From assembly GCF_016026235.1 (NCBI RefSeq), contig NZ_CP065613.1: a stretch of DNA of 64,000 nucleotides. One strand, 5' to 3'. Origin of the DNA: Escherichia coli (lineage in GTDB: Bacteria; Pseudomonadota; Gammaproteobacteria; Enterobacterales; Enterobacteriaceae). A program made the position numbers and the translations under genes. Under the pieces are notes generated by a model. It was not told the DNA's origin. It was given only the letters and a program-made list of their open reading frames with translations, and did not search any database. Below, one piece after another: positions 10,818 through 28,633 of the stretch. Position 1 is the first letter of the stretch; each line of letters starts with the position of its first letter.

Positions 10818-12264
10818 AATATTTCATCTCCCGAAACAGCCCGACCAGCTCATCTTCGGCACCATTGCGATTGTTCTTGTTCTCTCGACTGCTCATGCTA
10901 GGCAAAGGGAAGCCGTGCAGATCTCCCGGCAGACGAGCATCACGAATGGCACGGATCAGATTGTGCTCCAGCACATAGTTATCCATGGTTGCCAACTGCA
11001 CTACCTGCTGGCGGATGCGGCAGCGATAGGCCCAGATAAAGCACTTCTCGATGGCCAGTGACAGCCCTTGGCTGCCGAACTTGTCGATATAGAAGATCAG
11101 TGCGCAGTCGAACATGGCCCGCACATAACGATCCCCGGTGCGGTGGCGACGCTCGTAGCTGCCCAGGGTCGATAGCACCTTGCTGGCCATCGGTGTCAGC
11201 GTTTCGCCGAGCAGGGTGGCAGATTGCGCCTTGCCGGAATCAGACTCCTCGGCCACGATGGCGGCCACCCGCGTCTGGTAGTACTCGGCCATCTCGAAAA
11301 AGCGCCGACCATTGATGATCATCTGGTCGAGATGAAAGGGAAACGTCATGTACTGGCCGTCAATCTTGCGCTGGTACTGGCGGTTGTACTCATCGACAAA
11401 GTGGTGGGCGATGCGCAGCGACTCCACGTAAGGATAATGCCCTACCCGATCTAGGTTGACCCCCTTGAAGAGATCCACCTCCCCCTTGCCAAAGTAGCGG
11501 GCCGACTTGCCCTCGGCCCACTGGCGTACCCGATAGAGATAGAGGGCGAACAGATTGGCCAGCTCGTCGCTTGGCAGGCGCTCCCAATGGGCGACCGCCT
11601 CGGCCTTGAGATTGGCCTCATGACCGGCAAACTCGCGCAGGTGAAATGCCTTGAGCAGATCGTGAGGAGCCAGATCGCGCCCCCGGGCATTTTGCGAATC
11701 GAAGAACTGGAACGCCTCCGAGATATCCTGCAGTACAAAGCAGACCACCTGACAGCGGTTGAGCAGAAAGTCAATTTGCTGCTCGTCAAACTCAGGGCGG
11801 GCCACCAGCCGACGCAACTCCAGATAGTTGCGTCTGAGGTTGAACTCCGAATCCCGGCTGGGGAAGCGCTGGCGCTGCATAAACGCATCGATAGGTCCAC
11901 GCAAGACCTGCAATTGCTCACGCAGATCCTGACGTTGAAACCGGATACTCTTCTCTTTGCCACTGCGATTTTCGTTATCCAGCACCTCGATCAGCGCCTT
12001 GACGGTCAACATCAGGGTCAGGGTGCGTTGCTGACCATCGACGATATCAAGCATCTCGCCCTGCTCACTATCGGTGTGCTGATGAAACACCACCGAGCCC
12101 AGCCGGTAGGCGCTCTTGTCCTGATGGGTTGCCAAATCGGTAAAGAGATCCGAGATATTCTTGGAGCCCCAGCGGTAAGGTCGCTGATAGCTTGGGATGG
12201 CCAGTTGGGGAATGGCCAGCAACTGGCGTACCGACTGCACTTGATTATTAATGCTCTCCATCAT
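10810..12264 (-). CDS. DUF262 (ParB/GmrS-like NTPase) domain protein, 484 aa; upstream partner of a two-gene type IV restriction-like module
   Basis: '[12 protein letters not shown]' DGQQR motif and '[22 protein letters not shown]' typical of DUF262; overlaps the next gene's start (coupled). Confidence 0.8.
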
Positions 12265-17691: not shown

Positions 17692-18914
17692 TCGGCAACC
17701 GCCTCATCGACCTTAACACGACGTTTGCCAGTCAATAGCTGTTGCATCAGGGCTTTTTTCTCATCTCTCAGGCAGGCGAGTTTTTTCTCCAGCGTGGAGA
17801 TTTCGGTGTCAGCAGCGGACAGCACGGCGGCGATTTTTTGTTGCTCTTTAATAAATGGGCAAGAAAAGCTTAAAGTTTCAAAATCTTTCTTGGAAAGTTC
17901 TAAAAATGTTGAGCCAGATGATTTTTTGATCATCTCATTTGTGTTCATTTGCAACAAATAATAAATAAATTCGATATTAAACCCTTCATTCGGAATGATG
18001 TTTTTAAAACCTTGATTGGTACAAATTTCCGATGTCGAAATTGCTAAAGCACCAATGGTAGCTCTTGTACATACCATCAAACTACCTTTTGGCAAAAGAA
18101 CAGCTGAGCTATTTAGTAATCCCGCAGGAGTAATTTTTCTACTAGTATTGCTAACGAACCTACCCGTTAATGCAGTAACATCAGTTGGGGTAAGCCATAG
18201 AATATCGCCTTCCCAATACATGGCCATGTTTGTATCAGGTGTTCCACCGGATACAACTTTGCCCATTTGTATTAGTTTAGTAATTTTCCACTCCCCACTA
18301 AACCTCACCCCATTCTCATCCAACAACCGTTTATTCCCGGTAAGCAATTGCTGCATCAGGGCTTTTTTCTGCTGTTGACTGTTGGCGAGAAGGCTTTCCG
18401 TCACCGAAATTGCCTTATCCCAGGCGGTCAGAATTTGAGATATTTTATCTTGTTCACAAATAGCAGGAGTTTTTATGTTTAACGCTCTAATATCAGAAAG
18501 GTTAATTCTAGAAAAGGTAGAACCACCTGCACTTTTTGCTATCTGTCGCTGGACTAAATCTGATTGTAATGTGTAGTAAATAAACCGCCAATCTGCATGG
18601 ATTGCTTTAATTAAGACAGTGTCTTGCCCTAATACAAATGGCTTTTTGGAATCCACATAGCTAACAACACCGACAGACTGGTTACGACTCATAACCAAAT
18701 CACCTTGTTCAACAACACAGTGATCCATCAGAGAGCGATATTCTTCTTCTGTAACTCTTTTTACAGGTGAAATCAGATCTAAGGCTCCCCATTTTATCGT
18801 CCCCGGTGAGACAAGTGGTATTCCCGATTTAACGTACTCAGGAGTCCTGTGTTTGCAATCGATTATCGACGCAACCGATGAGAGTTTCTGAGATGACCAC
18901 CCCTTAGGAATCAT
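17688..18914 (-). CDS. hsdS: Type I restriction-modification specificity subunit (HsdS), two target-recognition domains
   Basis: Two copies of the conserved '[11 protein letters not shown](N/K)(K/R)R' repeat separating two variable domains. Confidence 0.9.
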
Positions 18915-20427
18915 AACCCAACTCCTTCAGATACCCCGCCATCTCCGTTTCCAGCTTCGCCAGTTCCGCCTTCAGTTGCTCGCGTTCGGCGCGTACGGCC
19001 AGCAAATCAATCTCGTCTTCTTCTTCAAAGGTATCGACATAGCGCGGAATATTGAGGTTGTAATCGTTGTCCTGAATTTCCTTCAGGCTGGCAAGATAGG
19101 CGTATTTCTCGACGTTATCGCCATCACGGTAGGTCTTGACGATTTTCTTAATGTTTTCTTCGCTAAGCTGGTTCTGGTTTTTACCTGCCTTGAATTCACG
19201 GCTGGCATCGATAAACAGCACCTTGTCATCAACTTTCTGCTTTTTGAAAATCAGAATCGCAGCCGGAATCCCCGTACCGTAGAACAGTTTTTCCGGCAGA
19301 CCAATTACCGCATCCAGCAAATTTTCGTCGATCAGTTTCTGGCGAATTTTACCTTCGCTGGAGCCACGGAAAAGCACACCGTGTGGCACAACTACGCCCA
19401 TACGGCCAGTTCCCGGTTTCAGGGTTTCGATCATATGCGAGATAAAAGCGTAATCTCCTTTAGTCTTCGGCGGTACACCGCGACGAAAACGGCCAAACTT
19501 ATCGTTCTCGGCCTCGTCATGGCCCCACTTATCGAGGCTGAACGGTGGGTTAGCGGTCACGATATCAAACAGCATCAGGTCGCCATTTTTATCGAGCAGC
19601 TTCGGGTTGCGAATGGTATCGCCCCACTCGATTTTATGGTTGTCTTCCCCGTGCAGGAACATATTCATTTTCGCCAGCGACCACGTAGAACCGATCGCTT
19701 CCTGACCGAACAATGCATAGTTACGACTATCATGCCCGGAGACAATTTTACGCCCACACTTCATCAATAATGAACCGGAACCACAGGCTGGATCGCAGAT
19801 GGTATCACCCGGTTGCGGATCGAGCAGTTCTGCAATCAGGTCCGAAACTTCCGGCGGGGTATAGAACTCCCCGGCTTTCTGCCCACCGCTGGCGGCAAAG
19901 TTTTTGATCAGGTATTCGTAAGCATTGCCGATAACGTCCAGCGTACCGACACGACTCGGCTTCAGGTTGAGATCTTCACCGGCGAAGTCTTCCAGTAGCT
20001 GACGAAGGATGGTGTTTTTCTGTTTTTCTTCGCCAAGACGATCGGTGTTAAACGAAATATCCTGGAACACGCTTTTCCCGGCATCTTTCAGTTTGGTTCC
20101 GTTGGCTTCTTCGATTGCATGCAGAGCCTGATCGATACGCTCACCGTTACCCGGCTCATGGCGGCGTTCGTACAGCGCATAAAAGCTGGCACTTTTTGGC
20201 AGTACAAAACGCTCGTTGGCCATCATCGCTTCAATCAGTTCCGGCACATCGCCATACTGTTCTTTGTATTCGTCATAGTGATCCTGCCAGACATCTGAAA
20301 TGTACTTGAGGAACAGCATGGTAAGGATAAAGTCTTTATAGGTATCAGCACTGATGGTGCCACGGAACGTATCACACGCGGCCCACAGGGCTTTGTTGAT
20401 CGTGTCCTGACTGATTTTGTCGTTCAT
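18904..20427 (-). CDS. hsdM: Type I restriction-modification N6-adenine DNA methyltransferase (HsdM), 507 aa
   Basis: AdoMet motif 'DPACGSGSLL' and catalytic 'NPPF' ('IVTANPPFS'). Confidence 0.9.
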   Translation of the reverse strand: MNDKISQDTINKALWAACDTFRGTISADTYKDFILTMLFLKYISDVWQDHYDEYKEQYGDVPELIEAMMANERFVLPKSASFYALYERRHEPGNGERIDQALHAIEEANGTKLKDAGKSVFQDISFNTDRLGEEKQKNTILRQLLEDFAGEDLNLKPSRVGTLDVIGNAYEYLIKNFAASGGQKAGEFYTPPEVSDLIAELLDPQPGDTICDPACGSGSLLMKCGRKIVSGHDSRNYALFGQEAIGSTWSLAKMNMFLHGEDNHKIEWGDTIRNPKLLDKNGDLMLFDIVTANPPFSLDKWGHDEAENDKFGRFRRGVPPKTKGDYAFISHMIETLKPGTGRMGVVVPHGVLFRGSSEGKIRQKLIDENLLDAVIGLPEKLFYGTGIPAAILIFKKQKVDDKVLFIDASREFKAGKNQNQLSEENIKKIVKTYRDGDNVEKYAYLASLKEIQDNDYNLNIPRYVDTFEEEDEIDLLAVRAEREQLKAELAKLETEMAGYLKELGYDS

Positions 20428-20799
20428 GAATCATCCTGGTCTGAAGAAAAAGCTAGCGATGCAGGGCTTTGCATCTTAAAAATTTCGGTAAATGATACCG
20501 TAAGATGCCTCCCCTGACACGCCAATATCGCAGCATTCAGGTTTGCATCATCCCCGTAATATCGACATGAGACAGACTGACACAACCTGGCTCGTCACTC
20601 GCTAAAAACCAATTATCTTAGTAAGATAGCATCCATATTAGCCATGGTGTAAAACTGCCGTTGGGGTAATGATGATCCATATATCACCCGTTCTGGTGTG
20701 TGAAGCTGACATCATCCATAATCGGCAACGTTGATGCCCTTTGATAGTAATGATGACCGTCAATGTGATTCCCCTGCTGACTGGAGGTCTCCGGATAGT

Positions 20800-21966
20800 A
20801 TGAGTATTACCAACTGCGTTATCGGCCCACTTTACGATGAGCAAATAAAAAAAACACTTATGTATGCTGACCATAAATTCAAGCGGCTAATGAATACACG
20901 AATGTCGTTACTCGAACATTTATCACCCCACTATGACTTATCTTCCATGTTCAGCTATGAGTTGGAGGGAAGAGTTTTTCGGATTAAATTGATCAAGCCT
21001 GAGATTAAATTATCTCGCCAGCAGTTGATCTTCTCCTCACTCTTTTTAGAGCAAGATTTTCTAAAAGAATATAAAAAACACATCTCAAATACTCTACAAA
21101 AAACAATCAAACAGTGCATTAAAAAATACAAACAAAAAATCAAAATCGAGCCTTCTATTTTAGATTACATATCAGCGTCACCCCGCAATACGTCGAGTTA
21201 TGTATTACATGAGATAGTTTCTCAATGTGAACATTGCGATGAAATTCGCAATATTAAAAATGATATATTGCTTGATGAACTAACGTTGAATGGCCGGATC
21301 ACTAACATTTCAAAATACATTAAAAACAGTCAAGATAAAATCGTCGAACATATAGAGTTCTGCACTCATAAACTTGTCAATATAAGTCGTAAGAATCGTC
21401 ACATTTTCAACAGCACCACAATCTCTGGCAGAAAACCCAACATCACTGGTGTTTTACTTTGCCTTTCAGAATTGATAAGCAACCTGCATATTTACCCAAC
21501 TGAAATTAATAATATAAGCAATGCCATAATATTAAGCATTGTATACTCTGTACTTCAACATCTTCAATCCGGAAGAAAAACAGAAAAAACAAAAACCTCT
21601 CCAGCACTGGATTTCATCCCCACCATCATCGCACCTCATGTTTTCTACCTGGCGAAACGCGAAAAATCCTCTCAATATAAATACATTGAAAAAGAATATC
21701 TTCTCGGCCAGTTACTTATATTTTTGATGTATAAAACAGTTTACTACTCGATTCATAACATCAGGGTAAGCCGTAAGCATTTCTATAACGATATAAAACC
21801 AAAATTAATGATACTAAAAAAAGAAAGCTTATTAAGCACCAATTTCATGAAAAATCGAAGAGAGATTAGTGGTGAAGTCTTTGGTGATGTTGGTAGTATT
21901 GAGGCTGATTTTCGAGAAATCAGCACATTGATTCATCGGCGAAAGGCTCTGTTTATTTCCTTTTAA
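20800..21966 (+). CDS. Hypothetical protein, very AT-rich, no recognisable domain (~388 aa from the ATG at 20800; ORF extends to 20731)
   Basis: Long ORF in a strongly AT-rich stretch; Lys/Ile/Asn-rich; SD-like 'ggagg' upstream of the ATG at 20800. Confidence 0.5.
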   Translation: MSITNCVIGPLYDEQIKKTLMYADHKFKRLMNTRMSLLEHLSPHYDLSSMFSYELEGRVFRIKLIKPEIKLSRQQLIFSSLFLEQDFLKEYKKHISNTLQKTIKQCIKKYKQKIKIEPSILDYISASPRNTSSYVLHEIVSQCEHCDEIRNIKNDILLDELTLNGRITNISKYIKNSQDKIVEHIEFCTHKLVNISRKNRHIFNSTTISGRKPNITGVLLCLSELISNLHIYPTEINNISNAIILSIVYSVLQHLQSGRKTEKTKTSPALDFIPTIIAPHVFYLAKREKSSQYKYIEKEYLLGQLLIFLMYKTVYYSIHNIRVSRKHFYNDIKPKLMILKKESLLSTNFMKNRREISGEVFGDVGSIEADFREISTLIHRRKALFISF

Positions 21967-22368
21967 TCTTTAGAGAACACTATATCATCGTGAAGCAGAG
22001 CTAATTTCAGCCTTGCATAGATCATTATCAATGCCATAGACAGTGTTAATCATATGACATCGTTCCGGTATTGATACTGATTATCAGGCCTTGGTTTTAT
22101 GTAATTTAAACACCACCATCTCTGAAACCTCACAGTGCTCATATTTTAACCATAAAAACTAACCGATTTACACCCGCCACACACCGTCATAACTTATTGT
22201 ATTTAAATAGCTATAAGCCTCTAACTCACTGATTACACCATTAAATTCAAGCCATATCCTTACGCAGATTCAAGCTTGCCCCTGCTGCCATTCACGTTTT
22301 AGGATTACCTCGCTAACACGACATGCTACTTTTTAAATCAGTGTAATAATTCAAACGAGGATAAAATT

Positions 22369-23499
22369 ATGTTCGAGAAAATGAAAAACAATGTAACCCG
22401 TATGCCGGGGAATTTAACAAAACTTAATCAATACCAAAAAGACATTGATCACCTGTCTAAACTATTTTCTGAACAGCAATTACTGGAACTAATGACGACT
22501 ACCGAATCCGATCAAATATTGCAAATGAAGCCTGCTGTAGATATTCTTCATGTACTATCTCCATCAGCATCTACTGCTAAGCATATCAATTTTTTTCAGC
22601 ACGTCCCAGTGCTCGAACAATGGTTAAAAAAGGAGTGCACTGCCTTTAATTTACTGGCAGTACATTTCTATTCACAGCAATCCCGTAAAAATGTAATTCC
22701 GAAAGAAATCTGTATGCTACTGGATGCATTTATTGAAACTGAACTTTCATCTGCGGTTAATGGTAATAATAATGCCGAACTCCTTTCTTGTTTTCAAAAC
22801 ACGCTGGATAAAATGTGCAATACACTAACATTTATAGACCACACAGTTACGGAACAATCAGGTCAAGTAGCAATGCTTGATTTCAGCGCAAAAATGCATG
22901 AATATACTGTTGAAATCAGGACCTTTTTGAAGTCTGAATACTGGCTAAACAAACTACCTAAGGATATTAACATTCCAGCCATTGACCTATCCTGGCTTGT
23001 GTTTTGTTACTTTTGCTCTGAATATCTTTTTGTATTTATTCAAACAACGCTCAATACAATGAAGGCAGGAAAAATCATTCGTGATAACTACCTTTATCAT
23101 CCTAAAATGATTGCATTGATCATTTTATCTATGCTGCCTTATGAAGTCATTCATAACGATGGATCACTGAATAAGTTTAAAACGCCTTTAACCAGCCCTG
23201 ATGAGTTCATAATCAAATCTATTTGCATTAAAGGTAAGCAAAACACTACAGGGCATAAAAAAGATATAGAACAATTGCTTCGTAAGACATATATCTATAT
23301 TGCATTACTCTTAAACCCTGAGTGGGCACCATCTTCCAAGGAGTTGATTTCCTTTTTATCAGGAAAGTCCTCAGTGATAAGTGGTTCACTCAACTTCCAG
23401 TCAACCTCCAGTGGTCTGGGTGTTCAAACAAACAATATAACTCTTCTTAAGAATGAGGTTTACTTCGAAAAAATAGCGAACAAGATCATGAAACTGTAG
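22369..23499 (+). CDS. Hypothetical protein, AT-rich, no recognisable domain, 376 aa
   Basis: Long ORF in the same AT-rich stretch; 'gaggataaaatt' SD precedes the ATG. Confidence 0.5.
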   Translation: MFEKMKNNVTRMPGNLTKLNQYQKDIDHLSKLFSEQQLLELMTTTESDQILQMKPAVDILHVLSPSASTAKHINFFQHVPVLEQWLKKECTAFNLLAVHFYSQQSRKNVIPKEICMLLDAFIETELSSAVNGNNNAELLSCFQNTLDKMCNTLTFIDHTVTEQSGQVAMLDFSAKMHEYTVEIRTFLKSEYWLNKLPKDINIPAIDLSWLVFCYFCSEYLFVFIQTTLNTMKAGKIIRDNYLYHPKMIALIILSMLPYEVIHNDGSLNKFKTPLTSPDEFIIKSICIKGKQNTTGHKKDIEQLLRKTYIYIALLLNPEWAPSSKELISFLSGKSSVISGSLNFQSTSSGLGVQTNNITLLKNEVYFEKIANKIMKL

Positions 23500-23642
23500 T
23501 TTCTTAATATAATGGCGACATGGAATTGTGTTGCCATTATATCCGAATCTGCGTTTTTTCACCTGATGAACTGTGAAAGCTGTAACTGGCAGACTATAAC
23601 CTCACATCGTATTTTTCCAGTGTCATTTACAGGAGAAATACG

Positions 23643-24779
23643 ATGCCTATTCTGGATCTGCGTTTCAGCAACAAATCAATTCACCAACTTCCACATCCCC
23701 TCACGGGTTGTCAGGAATACCGTGATATTCACTGCCAAAACCTGCGTGCTCTGGTGTATCCCAATCGGATCACGCTGGCCTTTCGTGCCACTATAAACAA
23801 TCAGCGTATATATGAAACCCTGGGTCAGTTCCCTCAGCTCTGCGTTGAGGATGCCCGTCAGCATGTGATGAAACTGCTTGCTGATAAAAATCGTCTTGCG
23901 GTTCAGTCCCGTCGATTCACTGTGGAACAGGCCATCAATGACCTGTGGCTACCGGATTTGCAGTTGTATAAAAAGAGTCCTCAGTCAGAGTTGTCAAAAC
24001 TCAACCTCTACGTTCGCCCGTTCTGGGGCAAGCGGCAACTTCGCGACATCACGGCAGGAGAACTAGAACAATATGCTGCTGGCTTACGGGAAAAATTACG
24101 TCCGTCAACAGTAAACCGTATCCTCGCAATATTGTCCAAAATATGCTCTCTGGCAGTACGTGCTGGATGGATCACACATTCCCCGATGTCACATGTCCGC
24201 TATCTGAAAGAAAATAACATTCGCTATCGCACACTGTCAGCGACAGAAATCCCGCGCTTTATTGACGCGGCAACAGCGCTGCAAACACCGGCAGCTGATT
24301 CTATATTGCTTGCTCTTTATACGGGGATGCGTATTGGTGAGGTATGTACCCTGAAATGGGAGTACTGGCACCCGGATATGCATCAACTCATACTGCCTGA
24401 TACAAAGTCCGGACACCCTTTCACCTGCCCACTTGCACCTCCAGCCATTGCAGTTGTCCAGTGCCAGCAGGACCTGATGCTCAGCAAAACTTACATTTTT
24501 CCACAACTAACCGACAATGCCCGCCCTCTGGCATATCCGCGTGCAACCTTTGCCCGTATTTGCCGGGATGCCGACATTGATAACCTGCGGATGCATGACC
24601 TGCGCCGTACCTTTGCCACCCGGGTACTACAGGCGACCGGGGATATTGCAATCGCTTCCCATCTGCTAAATCACCATTCACTCACGGCGACCCGTCGCTA
24701 CGCTTTTCACAATGCAGCGACATCACACGCAGTGGTTTCTCAGGTCATAGAAAGTTATGACACAAAAATGAACCTATGA
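23643..24779 (+). CDS. Tyrosine recombinase / phage-type integrase (second integrase of the island), 378 aa
   Basis: Catalytic-domain pattern 'LYTGMRIGEV...MHDLRRTFATR...LNHHSLTATRRYA' (R..H-x-x-R..Y); SD 'aggaga' before the ATG. Confidence 0.8.
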   Translation: MPILDLRFSNKSIHQLPHPLTGCQEYRDIHCQNLRALVYPNRITLAFRATINNQRIYETLGQFPQLCVEDARQHVMKLLADKNRLAVQSRRFTVEQAINDLWLPDLQLYKKSPQSELSKLNLYVRPFWGKRQLRDITAGELEQYAAGLREKLRPSTVNRILAILSKICSLAVRAGWITHSPMSHVRYLKENNIRYRTLSATEIPRFIDAATALQTPAADSILLALYTGMRIGEVCTLKWEYWHPDMHQLILPDTKSGHPFTCPLAPPAIAVVQCQQDLMLSKTYIFPQLTDNARPLAYPRATFARICRDADIDNLRMHDLRRTFATRVLQATGDIAIASHLLNHHSLTATRRYAFHNAATSHAVVSQVIESYDTKMNL

Positions 24780-24921: not shown

Positions 24922-25050
24922 ATGTATTTAACCATTAAGCAGTTCGCAGAAAGATTTAATCTTTCTGCATCCACGGTTGCGTCAGATATATCGCGCAACC
25001 CCGGAAAACTCCCGCCCTTCATCAGAATTGGGCGGGCTATACGATTCTCT
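24922..25050 (+). pseudogene. AlpA-like helix-turn-helix regulator/excisionase gene truncated by IS1
   Basis: 'MYLTIKQFAERFNLSASTVASDISRNPGKLPPFIRIGRAIRF' resembles AlpA-family phage regulators; reading frame runs into the IS1 terminal repeat at 25051. Confidence 0.55.
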
Positions 25051-25065
25051 GGTAATGACTCCAAC

Positions 25066-25569
25066 TTACTGATAGTGTTTTATGTTCAGATAATGCCCGA
25101 TGACCTTGTCATGCAGCTCCACCGATTTTGAGAACGACAGTGACTTCCGTCCCAGCCTTGCCAGATGTTGTCTCAGATTCAGATTATGTCGCTCAATGCG
25201 CTGAGTGTAACGCTTGCTGATAACGTGCAGCTTTCCCTTCAGGCGTGATTCATACAGCGGCCAGCCATCCGTCATCCATACCACGACCTCAAAGGCCGAC
25301 AGCAGGCTCAGAAGACGCTCCAGTGTGGCCAGAGTGCGTTCACCGAAGACGTGCGCCACAACCGTCCTCCGTATCCTGTCATACGCGTAAAACAGCCAGC
25401 GCTGACGTGATTTAGCACCGACGTAGCCCCACTGTTCGTCCATTTCAGCGCAGACAATCACATCACTGCCCGGTTGTATGCGCGAGGTTACCGACTGCGG
25501 CCTGAGTTTTTTAAGTGACGTAAAACCGTGTTGAGGCCAACGCCCATAATGCGTGCACTGGCGCGACAT
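25066..25569 (-). CDS. insB: IS1 InsB frame (variant isoform)
   Basis: -1 frame overlapping insA within the IS1. Confidence 0.85.
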
Positions 25570-25763
25570 CCGACGCCATTCATGGCCATATCAATGATTT
25601 TCTGGTGCGTACCGGGCTGAGAGGCGGTGTAAGTGAACTGTAGTTGCCATGTTTTACGGCAATGAGAGCAGAGATAGCGCTGATGTCCGGCAGTGCTTTT
25701 GCCGTTACGCACCACGCCTTCAGTAGCGGAGCAGGAAGGACATCTGATGGAAATGGAAGCCAC
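25488..25763 (-). CDS. insA: IS1 InsA (variant isoform)
   Basis: '[37 protein letters not shown]...'. Confidence 0.9.
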
Positions 25764-25936
25764 GCAAGCACCTTAAAATCACCATCATACACTAAATCAG
25801 TAAGTTGGCAGCATTACCCATCTTCAAATGGGAGTACCAGCTCTGTTTTCAACAGACTCATTACTGACTCCGGAAGAAGGAGCGACGGCAGGTCTTGCCA
25901 GTTCGAGACAAATTTCATTGAATAATCCTCATAAAC

Positions 25937-26286: not shown

Positions 26287-27486
26287 TCACATCTGCTTCG
26301 TAGCCGCAGTATTCAGAAGCAGGTCAGTCACTCCCTGCCCTGTCTGACGCATACGTTCCGGTGTTAATTTCGCGTAACGTTCTGTACTCTGAATACTGGC
26401 ATGCGCCAGTTGGGCTTTAACGTCATACAGGCTGAATTGACCACTCGAAACCAGTAAAGAGGCAACAGAATGACGTGTGGTGTGAAAACAGACTTCATTC
26501 TTGTCTATACCGCACTGTGCCAGTATTTTTTCATATGCCCATCGGGGTTCCGATATCGGTTTTCCATTATCCTTAATGGCGAACAGATACGGATTACTGC
26601 CAACTCGTGGGATAGCATCAATAATCGATAATGCGGCATCGCTTAGATATACCGTCCGACTGCGACCATTTTTTGTATAAGGAATGAACAGAGTACGATT
26701 GGCCCGGTCGATATGTTCATGCCTGACATTAAGCATTTCTGATTTGCGTGTACCGGTTAACAACAACATGGCTATCAATCCCCCGGCAGCTTTGTTGGGA
26801 TATTGGGTAGCAGCGTCAAGAATGCGCCTGATCTCATCAGCATCAAAAAAGCGCGTCCGCTGATTATTCTCTTTCAGTAAAGGGATCTTATCGGCTTCAT
26901 TCTTTTCCAGCACATCCTGTCGCAACGCATAACGCCCCATCGTTTTCAGAATAGCAAGGGCTCTGTTACAGGTAGACGGCGCATATTGCTGCCCGTGAAT
27001 ACGCCCCTCCAGCATGTCAAACAGCACCTGTTGTATCTCTCTGGCCCTGAGATCGCAGTAACGTATCTTTCCCAGACGAGGTTCAATGTATTGCGTGAAA
27101 CGCTGAACATCCTTATCCCAGGACTTTTTATGGCGTTTGATGAACGGAACATAGGTCTGGTGAAAAAACTCACTAAGTGTTGGCATCGCACGATAATTAT
27201 CGCGTTCTGCTTTAGGGTCATTTCCCAGTGCAATCGCCTCCTTATGACGGCGAGCTATCTGGCGAGCTGTCCCCACATCAATTTCAGGGAATCTGCCAAT
27301 ACTGATACTTTTTTTGGTACCGTGGAATGTGTAGCGCAGGAGGAAACGTTTGTTACCCGTTCGACCTGAGAGACATTTGAGGCCAATAACTTCGGTATCA
27401 GATACCTCAAGCTCTGTAGATCTGGTATCTGTGTTTGCCGGAAGGGCTTTGATGGATGAATTGGTGAATCGGAAGGATTTTTGCAT
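26287..27486 (-). CDS. int: P4-type tyrosine integrase (tRNA-proximal integrase of the island); probable start at the Met at 27486, ORF extends to 27516
   Basis: 'LLLTGTRKSEMLNVRHEHI' and 'CFHTTRHSVASLL...STERYAKL' catalytic motifs; N-terminal 'FTNSSIKALP' arm-binding region; 'gaggat' SD before the ATG at 27486. Confidence 0.85.
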   Translation of the reverse strand: MQKSFRFTNSSIKALPANTDTRSTELEVSDTEVIGLKCLSGRTGNKRFLLRYTFHGTKKSISIGRFPEIDVGTARQIARRHKEAIALGNDPKAERDNYRAMPTLSEFFHQTYVPFIKRHKKSWDKDVQRFTQYIEPRLGKIRYCDLRAREIQQVLFDMLEGRIHGQQYAPSTCNRALAILKTMGRYALRQDVLEKNEADKIPLLKENNQRTRFFDADEIRRILDAATQYPNKAAGGLIAMLLLTGTRKSEMLNVRHEHIDRANRTLFIPYTKNGRSRTVYLSDAALSIIDAIPRVGSNPYLFAIKDNGKPISEPRWAYEKILAQCGIDKNEVCFHTTRHSVASLLVSSGQFSLYDVKAQLAHASIQSTERYAKLTPERMRQTGQGVTDLLLNTAATKQM

Positions 27487-27566: not shown

Positions 27567-28307
27567 ATGGAAAAGCTATTAGACGCGTACAAACGGATAT
27601 TACAGGAAGTTGACGCCCAGTCATTTAACCTGAATGAGGATAAATACTCAGGCGTCTTTTTACCCGTGCCCTTTGAAGAATACTGGCACTCACCGGTAAA
27701 AATCATACTGGTTGGACGTGAAACCGCTGGCTGGAATACTCTGAATGGTAAGAACACGATATCACGGGTGCTGGGACTTATACCTGACGTCACCATCGGG
27801 CAGGTGGTTGGAGAGGCTGTAGATCGTTACAGGAATCATCTTCCGGTACAAAATGATGGCACCACGAACCTCAAATCACGTAGCCGCTTCACGCAGTATC
27901 ATTTCCGGCTGGCCCGGGAGCTTAATATTCCTCCTCAGGCTATCGTGTATGCCAATCTACTGGCGTGGGATTACGACGGACTGACCCCTCTCAATCGCCC
28001 TCAAAATGAAGTGCAGGAAGTTATATTAGCCTCGCTGAAGCTGCTGGCGGTACAAATTAAACACCTTGAGCCTGATTTCATCATCTTTGCATCCGGAGCC
28101 CGGAGAACAGACTACATCATAAAACAGGTGCTTACTGAGCTGGGCGGCTATGAGACTTCTGCAGTCATTCCGGGGAAGCTATGGGAGTTCAAAACAGGTA
28201 ATGCAATCTGTTTCAGAATTGCCCATCCACGGGCTATGCGCGGACACCAGAAGTACAGAGATGAGGTGATTGCACGAATTAAGCAACTTTGTACTCAGGG
28301 TGGCTAG
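27567..28307 (+). CDS. Hypothetical protein, 246 aa; weak resemblance to a uracil-DNA-glycosylase-like fold
   Basis: ORF between the integrase and the tRNA; 'KIILVGRETAGW' and 'IAHPRAMRGH' loosely resemble UDG motifs A and B. Confidence 0.5.
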   Translation: MEKLLDAYKRILQEVDAQSFNLNEDKYSGVFLPVPFEEYWHSPVKIILVGRETAGWNTLNGKNTISRVLGLIPDVTIGQVVGEAVDRYRNHLPVQNDGTTNLKSRSRFTQYHFRLARELNIPPQAIVYANLLAWDYDGLTPLNRPQNEVQEVILASLKLLAVQIKHLEPDFIIFASGARRTDYIIKQVLTELGGYETSAVIPGKLWEFKTGNAICFRIAHPRAMRGHQKYRDEVIARIKQLCTQGG

Positions 28308-28491
28308 AGCATTACAGCTTGCTCAGCGGCCCCCTTCCCGGAAGCGTACCGGAAAACAGGCAAAGCGGCCTGGTTCTCTATGCTGGAAGCGACACGTTCG
28401 ATTCGGCATTGCCAGGCTGAAGATTGCAGCTCATCGCACCCCGTGAGCACAGGATATGCACAGGACATGAATTTCAGGCACAAAAAAACCA

Positions 28492-28520
28492 CCCGGAGGT
28501 GGTTTCACGACACTGCTTAT
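28492..28520 (-). terminator. Rho-independent terminator of the glyW-cysT-leuZ tRNA operon
   Basis: Minus-strand hairpin 'gaaaccacctccgggtggttt' followed by a T-run, directly 3' of tRNA-Leu. Confidence 0.8.
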
Positions 28521-28546
28521 TGCTTTGATTATTCTTGTCTTTCCCA

Positions 28547-28633
28547 TGGTACCCGGAGCGGGACTTGAACCCGCACAGCGCGAACGCCGAGGGATTTTAA
28601 ATCCCTTGTGTCTACCGATTCCACCATCCGGGC
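28547..28633 (-). tRNA. leuZ: tRNA-Leu (anticodon UAA), 87 nt
   Basis: Minus-strand sequence gcccggatggtggaatcggtagacacaagggattTAAaatccc...gggtacca; long variable arm and CCA end. Confidence 0.95.

Follow-up and report, generated by a model that had tools for sequence, protein, structure and literature searches.

Two AT-rich orphan genes at the core-cargo border of an Escherichia coli pipolin remnant, probably backbone genes of the element and not exchangeable defence cargo

Pipolins are widespread, defence-carrying genomic islands that encode a primer-independent family B DNA polymerase (piPolB). In the layout given in PMC11551731, an IntSXT integrase lies at a tRNA gene, IntP2 with an excisionase (Xis) after it lies near piPolB, DUF2787 and WYL genes are present, and defence genes form a distal cargo. 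The pipolin papers already describe frequent orphan genes, and deletions linked to insertion sequences (IS) near IntP2 are noted in PMC11551731. Groups of "hypothetical proteins" occur in 64-93% of E. coli pipolins (PMC7385651, Table S3) and "2 orphan proteins" serve as core markers in PMC11551731. We analyse a stretch of 64,000 nucleotides (nt) of Escherichia coli DNA (contig NZ_CP065613.1 of assembly GCF_016026235.1; "the window"), in which two long AT-rich open reading frames, ORF1 and ORF2, lie between a type I restriction-modification (R-M) operon and a tyrosine recombinase gene. The original prediction, made from the letters alone, suggested that they are recently acquired defence or anti-defence cargo and a candidate for a previously undescribed module. 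Our comparisons instead show that the island is a pipolin remnant, in which ORF2 belongs to the backbone of the element and ORF1 is an accessory gene of one pipolin type.

The island lies at tRNA-Leu between yecA and pgsA and is what is left of an enterobacterial pipolin. The corresponding locus of E. coli PK8217 (locus L001) occupies the region between yecA and the leuZ-cysT-glyW tRNA cluster adjoining pgsA. Its cargo genes stand in the order Hhe, two DUF262 genes, an M48 peptidase gene, hsdR, a YecA-like gene, hsdS and hsdM. They are followed by two hypothetical genes and then by genes for a recombinase, a helix-turn-helix (HTH) protein, a protein of 212 amino acids (aa) and one of 866 aa; farther right follow DUF2787, two small genes, a second integrase gene and tRNA-Leu. 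A sequence check of the 866-aa protein found D59, E61, D368, K613, H614, K623, R625 and the motifs SxTTDG and KH-X8-KTRG, and by exactly these residues and motifs (including the SxTTDG PolC motif) the primer-independent PolB is recognised in E. coli pipolins (PMC5695915). As the protein carries all published piPolB signature residues, the island is assigned to the pipolins, whose published layout (PMC7385651, PMC11551731) it matches. With described enterobacterial pipolins (PMC5695915, PMC7385651, PMC11551731) the window shares the common integration site, attachment (att) repeats, IntSXT and IntP2, as well as the common type I R-M, Hhe and DUF262 cargo, and its DNA is 97-99% identical to piPolB-bearing E. 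coli loci. The 3.2-kb interval around the ORF pair is 95-99% identical to chromosomal DNA in 430 of 5,426 complete E. coli genomes, 234 of which contain at least 80% of it. The object is thus already known, being a pipolin of a known kind with near-identical public copies in which the genes are annotated as hypothetical, and the idea of an undescribed module is not borne out, as orphan genes are already listed in the pipolin papers (PMC7385651, PMC11551731).

The ORF pair is bounded by hsdM on its left and by the tyrosine recombinase gene on its right, with the following arrangement:

18904..20427, minus strand: hsdM, divergent from ORF1; belongs to the type I R-M cargo and is the last gene of the exchangeable module
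20800..21966, plus strand: ORF1, 388 aa, intact, orphan family; a longer frame opens at 20731
21967..22368, unstranded: spacer between ORF1 and ORF2, 402 nt
22369..23499, plus strand: ORF2, 376 aa, intact, orphan family
23643..24779, plus strand: IntP2-family tyrosine recombinase of the pipolin backbone, family name after PMC11551731

The spacer between the two genes measures 304-499 nt in relatives. All ORF1 homologues align with a start of the form MSIxN at the ATG at 20800, and the Shine-Dalgarno (SD) and start context GGAGG..GGATAGxATG is kept even in a homologue of 45% identity. RefSeq calls a 410-aa protein from an upstream ATG, and the N-terminus so added (window 20734-20799) is not conserved. 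Because of the conserved N-terminus and SD context we take the 388-aa start for the real one. ORF2 has a GAGGA 8 nt 5' of its ATG.

The base composition of the pair is as extreme as had been claimed. The two lowest 1-kb bins of the window are 21001-22000 and 22001-23000, with GC contents of 0.337 and 0.367; the next-lowest have 0.394 and 0.399, and most bins lie at 0.45-0.58. ORF1 and ORF2 themselves have GC contents of 0.35-0.36, against about 0.50 for the host, an AT-richness such as would be expected of H-NS-silenced xenogeneic genes. This picture of two long, same-strand, AT-rich frames with SD-like sequences in the least GC-rich part of the window is confirmed. The foreign origin derived from it needs to be divided: horizontal acquisition stands, the genes being part of a mobile element beside defence systems, and its supposed recency does not. 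Both families have GC contents of 0.33-0.39 in every lineage, against 0.41-0.53 in the neighbouring backbone genes, and this holds even for pairs in which synonymous divergence is saturated. The families have thus long had, and kept, a low GC content, which does not mark a recent arrival.

The gene neighbourhood argues for the assignment of ORF2 to the backbone. Contexts came from look-ups of identical proteins, from a genome scan and from a scan with a 25-nt motif described below, and 29 loci had enough downstream DNA to be informative, from E. coli, Citrobacter, Edwardsiella, Serratia, Lelliottia, Hafnia, Buttiauxella, Intestinirhabdus and metagenomes. The ORF2 homologue is followed directly by IntP2 on the same strand in all of them, and wherever the DNA extends beyond IntP2, the excisionase gene, p200 and piPolB follow. 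The cargo on the left-hand side varies, with type I R-M in many loci, type III R-M with a UvrD/PD-(D/E)XK protein in Serratia, and dynamin-like GTPases or patatin in other pipolins. Exchangeable cargo as delimited in PMC11551731 has recent homologues on unrelated mobile elements (plasmids, ICEs, phages) and a patchy distribution among pipolins, a description that does not apply to ORF2. We therefore regard ORF2, on the evidence of its genomic distribution, as a universal, pipolin-restricted backbone gene at the border of core and cargo, and not as swappable defence cargo; the label of cargo is abandoned for a gene that remains tied to IntP2-Xis-p200-piPolB while the cargo to its left changes.

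Conservation of the gene neighbourhood holds for the position of ORF2 before IntP2 and not for ORF1, which occurs only with one ORF2 allele type (type A, found with it in E. coli, Citrobacter, Intestinirhabdus, Edwardsiella and Salmonella) and is absent from the others. ORF1 is thus patchy among pipolins, yet confined to pipolin-type islands, and is best seen as an accessory gene specific to type-A pipolins. Its sole other occurrence is a 45%-identical gene on a metagenome contig (locus L006, ERR1891491_286, 5450-10980). There it stands alone, upstream of a different tyrosine recombinase gene and a DUF927 primase gene, with DUF2787-, p176- and p123-like genes nearby; the island is pipolin-like, and a primase takes the place of piPolB in it.

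ORF2 is also set apart from its neighbours by its divergence. There are at least five allele types with 36-43% identity between types, and among complete E. coli genomes type A was found in 234 and type B in 2-4. Amino-acid identities of ORF2 and of the backbone genes beside it compare as follows:

E. coli versus the Serratia/Lelliottia/Hafnia group: ORF2 39-43%; IntP2 77-78%, piPolB 71%
Lelliottia (L007) versus Buttiauxella (L022): ORF2 41%; IntP2 93%
Lelliottia (L007) versus Hafnia (L008): ORF2 72%; IntP2 95%, piPolB 94%

In the Lelliottia-Hafnia pair, the non-synonymous divergence (dN) of ORF2 is about 7 times that of its neighbours; its synonymous divergence (dS) is raised 2-4 fold, the ratio to the neighbours being about 3.6. 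Pairwise Nei-Gojobori estimates of dN/dS are 0.11-0.29 for ORF1 and 0.16-0.40 for ORF2, which points to purifying selection on both genes. We interpret the combination of raised dS with dN/dS well below 1 as the result of old, functional ORF2 alleles being shuffled between backbones, and not of runaway positive selection in place. Full-length frames stay open in relatives of 36-69% identity, full-length homologues being traced down to 36-47%, and such divergent homologues together with dN/dS values of 0.11-0.40 indicate that ORF1 and ORF2 are more than chance frames; their conservation as genes in related islands is upheld.

Exchange is also visible in the adjacent cargo. The hsdM product is 97-99% identical at the amino-acid level across pipolins with backbone genes of about 70% identity (the window, L005, L007, L008 and L017-L023), and the start of hsdM is always 219 nt from the first copy of the 25-nt motif. 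The R-M cassette has apparently been swapped, or homogenised, across diverged backbones.

The orphan status of both proteins is confirmed by sequence and fold searches. Neither ORF1 nor ORF2 has a significant match in Pfam (searched with single sequences and, on the alignments, member by member), nor a family match in NCBIfam, PHROGs or PDB sequence profiles, and PADLOC-DB 2.0 returned no defence family at E values up to 0.1 for both. The model AbiJ_NTD4 reached a sub-threshold i-E of 0.036 against ORF1 and a best value of 0.018, in two of eight family members, none of them significant. A paralogous relationship of the two genes was considered as well and is ruled out by BLASTP and by an hhalign probability of 0.1%. 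Among 5.8 billion clustered proteins, 13 relatives of ORF1 and 18 of ORF2 were found, all of them enterobacterial and unnamed; a profile search added no members to the 13 of ORF1, and a profile search of 1.84 billion representatives with ORF2 gave just six full-length clusters at 50% identity. Some relatives are shortened (L017, L047 and short clusters among the homologues). A species-level genome scan recovered seven loci, in Citrobacter, Intestinirhabdus, Enterobacter and Buttiauxella. A literature search returned no paper that assigns a function to ORF1 or ORF2 or describes the repeat discussed below, as far as the accessible texts go, and the available portions of the pipolin papers (PMC5695915, PMC7385651, PMC11551731) do not single out ORF1, ORF2 or the hypervariability of ORF2.

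Both families seem to be bound to their islands. A search of 50,697 phage records found neither gene, and one of 72,556 plasmids did not find ORF1; on plasmids, ORF2 is represented solely by a 5' stub of 94 codons, cut by IS1, beside exported hsdRMS genes on two Klebsiella plasmids. On one of these, the IncFIB plasmid pKqu-1 of Klebsiella quasipneumoniae (L025, NZ_CP097647.1, 5169-8002), a pipolin-type hsdRMS/YecA cassette is followed by a stub of a type-B ORF2 at the ORF2 position. We read the plasmid stub as the footprint of IS1-mediated export of cargo, and not as mobility of ORF2.

The predicted proteins offer few clues to their activity. ORF2 is near neutral and is modelled as all-alpha with one small beta hairpin (predicted local distance difference test, pLDDT, 64; predicted template-modelling score, pTM, 0.57), and AlphaFold DB models of members of its family superpose with TM-scores of up to 0.71. 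A Foldseek search against AFDB50 returned members of the ORF2 family and one weak Vibrio protein, and a fold search of BFVD gave no match. ORF1 is basic (isoelectric point 9.6) and predicted to be all-alpha, with a structure model that is unusable (pLDDT 40). The highest Kyte-Doolittle means over 19 residues, 1.51 at residues 210-228 of ORF2 and 1.23 in ORF1, are below the usual transmembrane threshold of 1.6. No catalytic-looking conserved motif was seen in either protein, nor a nuclease, ATPase, TIR, Sir2 or HEPN-like fold or motif. Two candidate motifs in ORF2 were dropped: the HEPN-like R-x5-H at residues 238-244, the only one in the protein, has a non-conserved arginine, and the residues of a P-loop-like GKxNxTG are not conserved or misfit the pattern.

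The non-coding sequence around the two genes contains a repeat that may bear on their expression. Its first copy in the window is:

20646..20670, plus strand: 25-nt motif GGTGTAAAACTGCCGTTGGGGTAAT, copy 1, with 130 nt from its 3' end to the ATG of ORF1

The motif GGTGTAAAACTGCCGTTGGGGTAAT is unique in the window (none expected by chance) and precedes ORF1/ORF2 in each of the five ORF2 allele types, at 65-90 nt from ORF2 in types B, C and E and at about 220-315 nt in the more divergent copies L014-L016. Every pipolin with enough sequence has a second copy in the same orientation 7-11 kb downstream (among others at 30080-30104 of L001, 18858-18882 of L007 and 19708-19732 of L002). From this copy it is 81 nt to the start of p78, a gene of 78 aa, while DUF2787 ends about 190-215 nt away, and the repeat runs on in degenerate form to an ATCACCC box. 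The product of p78 (L007 18541-18777) is a stand-alone version of the N-terminal HTH of the pipolin WYL regulator, both matching phrog_13105, and p78 may be a truncated WYL paralogue acting on the same operator. The internal repeat pair is not mentioned in the accessible parts of the pipolin literature.

Such a pair could represent either an operator or att-like sites. For recombination between the copies, a junction of the empty site is predicted, and it was not found in one piece in the 5,426 E. coli genomes. The motif was also searched in viral and metagenome collections; about 21 of 58 metagenome matches are chance occurrences without pipolin genes, and the approximately 37 matches in metagenomic pipolins include no junction of the circle or empty type, the breaks beside the motif being IS1 or IS5 insertions. 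With no recombinant junctions found in these genomes or metagenomes, the motif pair has no support as recombination sites, and it would be more economical to see in it an operator that two promoter regions share; the motif is probably an operator of the pipolin WYL/HTH regulators, judging from its placement. A pipolin-type island of E. coli I4 (L024, NZ_CP195978.1, 8903-9596) lacks the whole module from ORF1 to p78 and has kept both motif copies. Its deletion joins a point 7 nt 5' of the ORF1 ATG to one 117 nt left of motif copy 2, via a microhomology of 6 nt.

The spacers have no Rfam match and no tandem or iteron-like repeats, and sites resembling promoters or terminators are not in excess there; in the spacer between ORF1 and ORF2, neither a consensus promoter, a consensus terminator nor significant repeats were found. 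Structured elements occur between ORF2 and IntP2:

23507..23542, plus strand: hairpin directly after the ORF2 stop, stem of 14-15 bp; z-score of the region -5.6
23565..23578, plus strand: box GATGAACTGTGAAA, about 65-78 nt 5' of the IntP2 start
23605..23645, plus strand: hairpin CATCGTATTTTTCCAGT/ACAGGAGAAATACGATG, in which the predicted pairing sequesters the SD sequence and AUG of IntP2

The hairpin after ORF2 is possibly a partial terminator or an RNA-stability element; its equivalent in Edwardsiella is followed by a T-run. Nine diverse pipolin sequences, when aligned, all share the 12-nt core ATGAACTGTGAA of the box GATGAACTGTGAAA without change, whereas the position following the core varies, and the box is a candidate promoter or operator element of IntP2. 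IntP2 may be controlled at the level of translation, as the sequence of the SD-sequestering hairpin is for the most part conserved between ORF2 allele types. Taken together, the hairpin after ORF2, the invariant box and the hairpin over the start imply that IntP2 may have its own control.

The copy of the element in the window is incomplete, as apparent from the remaining features:

1..114, unstranded: attL, left end of the pipolin, a repeat of the 3' part of tRNA-Leu and downstream sequence, also matching the tRNA-Leu region of L001
577-1773, 2076-4355, 4340-5112 and 5088-8600: IS110-family transposase gene and IS1-split Hhe gene
24922..25059, plus strand: 5' remnant of the excisionase gene (HTH_17), 46 aa, 96% identity, cut by IS1
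25051..25819, unstranded: IS1, at which about 7 kb (L001 24625-31634) are deleted
26290..27486, minus strand: IntSXT-family integrase, adjoining the tRNA-Leu attachment site
28491..28602, unstranded: attR, overlapping the 3' part of tRNA-Leu (28547-28633, minus strand)

attL and attR form a direct repeat of 114 and 112 nt with 96.5% identity. In the alignment the window is colinear with L001 up to position 25050, continues with IS1 and resumes at L001 position 31634. Of the excisionase gene, the IS1-associated deletion left only the 5' remnant, and it also removed p200, piPolB, small downstream genes, motif copy 2, DUF2787, p176 (a gene of 176 aa) and part of p123 (123 aa), in keeping with the IS-linked deletions near IntP2 noted in PMC11551731. 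Of the core layout, IntSXT and IntP2 are thus present, the excisionase gene is cut, and DUF2787 and WYL are deleted, though present in relatives. A tblastn search of the window did not find piPolB, and as the 97-99% identical PK8217 locus encodes it, the window holds a piPolB-less remnant. Unlike full pipolins, this copy is without piPolB, an intact excisionase gene, p200, WYL, DUF2787 and UDG-like genes. ORF1, ORF2 and IntP2 are intact despite the deletion, which may be recent. The defence cargo is decaying likewise: a second IS1 splits the gene of the anti-phage helicase Hhe, and a transposase gene of the IS110 family lies near attL. Between IntSXT and tRNA-Leu, there is a 246-aa frame without family match (window 27567-28307), of which E. 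coli PK8217 and Serratia have counterparts in the corresponding position, sometimes as a pseudogene.

We slightly favour, as the better-founded account of the locus, that ORF1 and ORF2 are pipolin backbone genes and serve as allele-specific factors in control or exclusion, with the 25-nt motif governing their expression. Most of the weight of this composite reading is carried by identity and context; its mechanistic part, taken alone, is a tentative proposal of which we are more doubtful. ORF2 heads the same-strand string ORF2-IntP2-Xis-p200-piPolB from a position between the 25-nt motif and IntP2, and its alleles appear to be replaced by recombination while the neighbours stay conserved. According to the mechanistic part, ORF2, joined by ORF1 in type A, would be an allele-specific factor in the control of the element itself, for example by setting the specificity of IntP2/piPolB activation or by excluding related elements, and would not be an exchangeable anti-phage system. 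Expression of both genes would be governed by the 25-nt motif, bound by the WYL and p78 HTH proteins. Several observations weigh against this proposal. Homology supports no molecular function for either protein, and as no DNA-binding or other domain was detected, a regulatory role is deduced from position and allele pattern alone. Co-transcription of ORF2 and IntP2 is in doubt given the hairpin after ORF2 and the box and SD-sequestering hairpin of IntP2, and no consensus sigma-70 promoter was found upstream of ORF1 or ORF2. Fast evolution, AT-richness and a neighbourhood of defence genes would fit a defence or anti-defence gene equally well, and the integrity of ORF1 and ORF2 after the loss of piPolB and of the putative regulators is unexpected for genes that serve mobility only.

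These last points lead to the view that ORF2, with or without ORF1, is a fixed effector, abortive-infection-like or acting in counter-defence, which the pipolin carries permanently. It would be silenced by H-NS and/or WYL and released upon infection, and its hypervariability would reflect an arms race with phages. We consider this rather unlikely. It would account for the seat in a defence island directly beside type I R-M, GmrSD-like and Hhe genes, for the persistent AT-richness, for a non-synonymous rate of ORF2 that is 5-7 times that of IntP2 or piPolB, and for genes that stay intact here after loss of the replication module; WYL regulators govern defence systems in other contexts (background cited in PMC11551731), and a weak, sub-threshold match links ORF1 to AbiJ_NTD4 (E = 0.036). 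It is opposed by the absence of matches to PADLOC, Pfam or NCBIfam defence models and of an effector fold or motif (R-x5-H 238-244 is not conserved, and with a maximum of 1.51 there is no confident transmembrane segment). Moreover, the two families were never found on other mobile elements, unlike the neighbouring cargo, dN/dS is well below 1, and the divergence is allelic, within one family at a fixed slot, and not the turnover of cassettes typical of defence hotspots.

Alternatively, the motif pair could be attL and attR of a nested "mini-pipolin", a unit of 7-11 kb mobilised by IntP2/Xis which the ORFs serve. This unit would comprise [ORF1]-ORF2-IntP2-Xis-p200-piPolB-WYL...p78 and would have been inserted into an older island of IntSXT-p123-p176-DUF2787 and cargo. 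The direct repeats do flank exactly that gene set in every pipolin with enough sequence, across all allele types, the L006 block (ORF1 homologue, other recombinase, DUF927 primase) is differently placed relative to DUF2787-p176-p123, and a later incorporation of IntP2 from another mobile element has been suggested in PMC11551731. We nevertheless judge such nesting quite improbable: the 5,426 E. coli genomes contain no one-piece empty-site junction and the loss in strain I4 is a microhomology deletion, the roughly 37 metagenomic pipolin matches hold neither circle nor empty junctions but IS insertions, and no repeat flanks the L006 block. Both motif copies also lie in promoter-bearing intergenic regions, copy 2 beside an HTH gene, as would be expected of an operator. 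That the frames are spurious, open by chance in AT-rich junk or pseudogenes of a dying island, seems hardly credible to us. The island is visibly decaying (IS1, IS110, lost piPolB, split Hhe) and some relatives are truncated (L017, L047, short clusters). But AT-rich DNA is rich in stop codons, and full-length frames are nevertheless open at 36-69% identity; dN/dS is 0.11-0.40, start contexts and N-termini are conserved, and 80% or more of the interval of the pair is present in 234 of 5,426 complete E. coli genomes. A more far-reaching proposal, which we hold to be unlikely, is that ORF2 (with ORF1 in type A) founds a new protein family of unassigned fold, an allele-specific immunity, exclusion or anti-phage determinant of pipolins that is switched by a hitherto undescribed 25-nt operator shared with p78/WYL, or else that the motif pair marks the nested, IntP2-mobilised mini-pipolin with piPolB on it.

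Returning to the favoured reading of ORF1 and ORF2 as genes of the element, the supposed "orphan defence candidates" are reclassified as probable pipolin backbone genes. The hypervariable ORF2 heading the IntP2-piPolB string, the two-copy 25-nt motif and the predicted hairpin over the IntP2 ribosome-binding site provide leads for pipolin biology. Either the 25-nt operator or the nested mini-pipolin, if true, would be a first handle on the regulation or movement of pipolins. For genome scans, the locus illustrates that AT-rich orphans by an integrase in a defence island may be housekeeping genes of the element and not new immune systems.

Two other groups of mobile elements invite comparison with the ORF2 slot. 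In the lysogeny operon of P2/186-type phages, the gene of the immunity repressor lies directly upstream of, and co-directional with, a P2-family integrase gene, and the immunity regions fall into strongly divergent types between otherwise similar elements. ORF2 resembles this arrangement in lying immediately 5' of a co-oriented IntP2-family integrase gene and in occurring in divergent types, and the analogy is one of position only. It differs from P2/186 in that ORF2 has 376 aa without a detectable HTH, as opposed to HTH repressors of 99-192 aa, in that the pipolin excisionase gene is located downstream on the same strand rather than divergently, and in that no similarity of sequence or fold was found.

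The pipolin locus also has features in common with WYL-regulated defence loci of the BrxR/CapW type and with the variable defence hotspots known from P2 phages and P4 satellites, namely AT-rich orphans in a fixed slot between conserved genes of the mobile element, with an integrase adjoining and a WYL regulator nearby. The gene families found in P2/P4 defence hotspots are unrelated to one another and are not confined to them. The ORF2 slot differs from them in having no matches to defence models and in being filled, in all lineages, by one homologous family that is restricted to pipolins.

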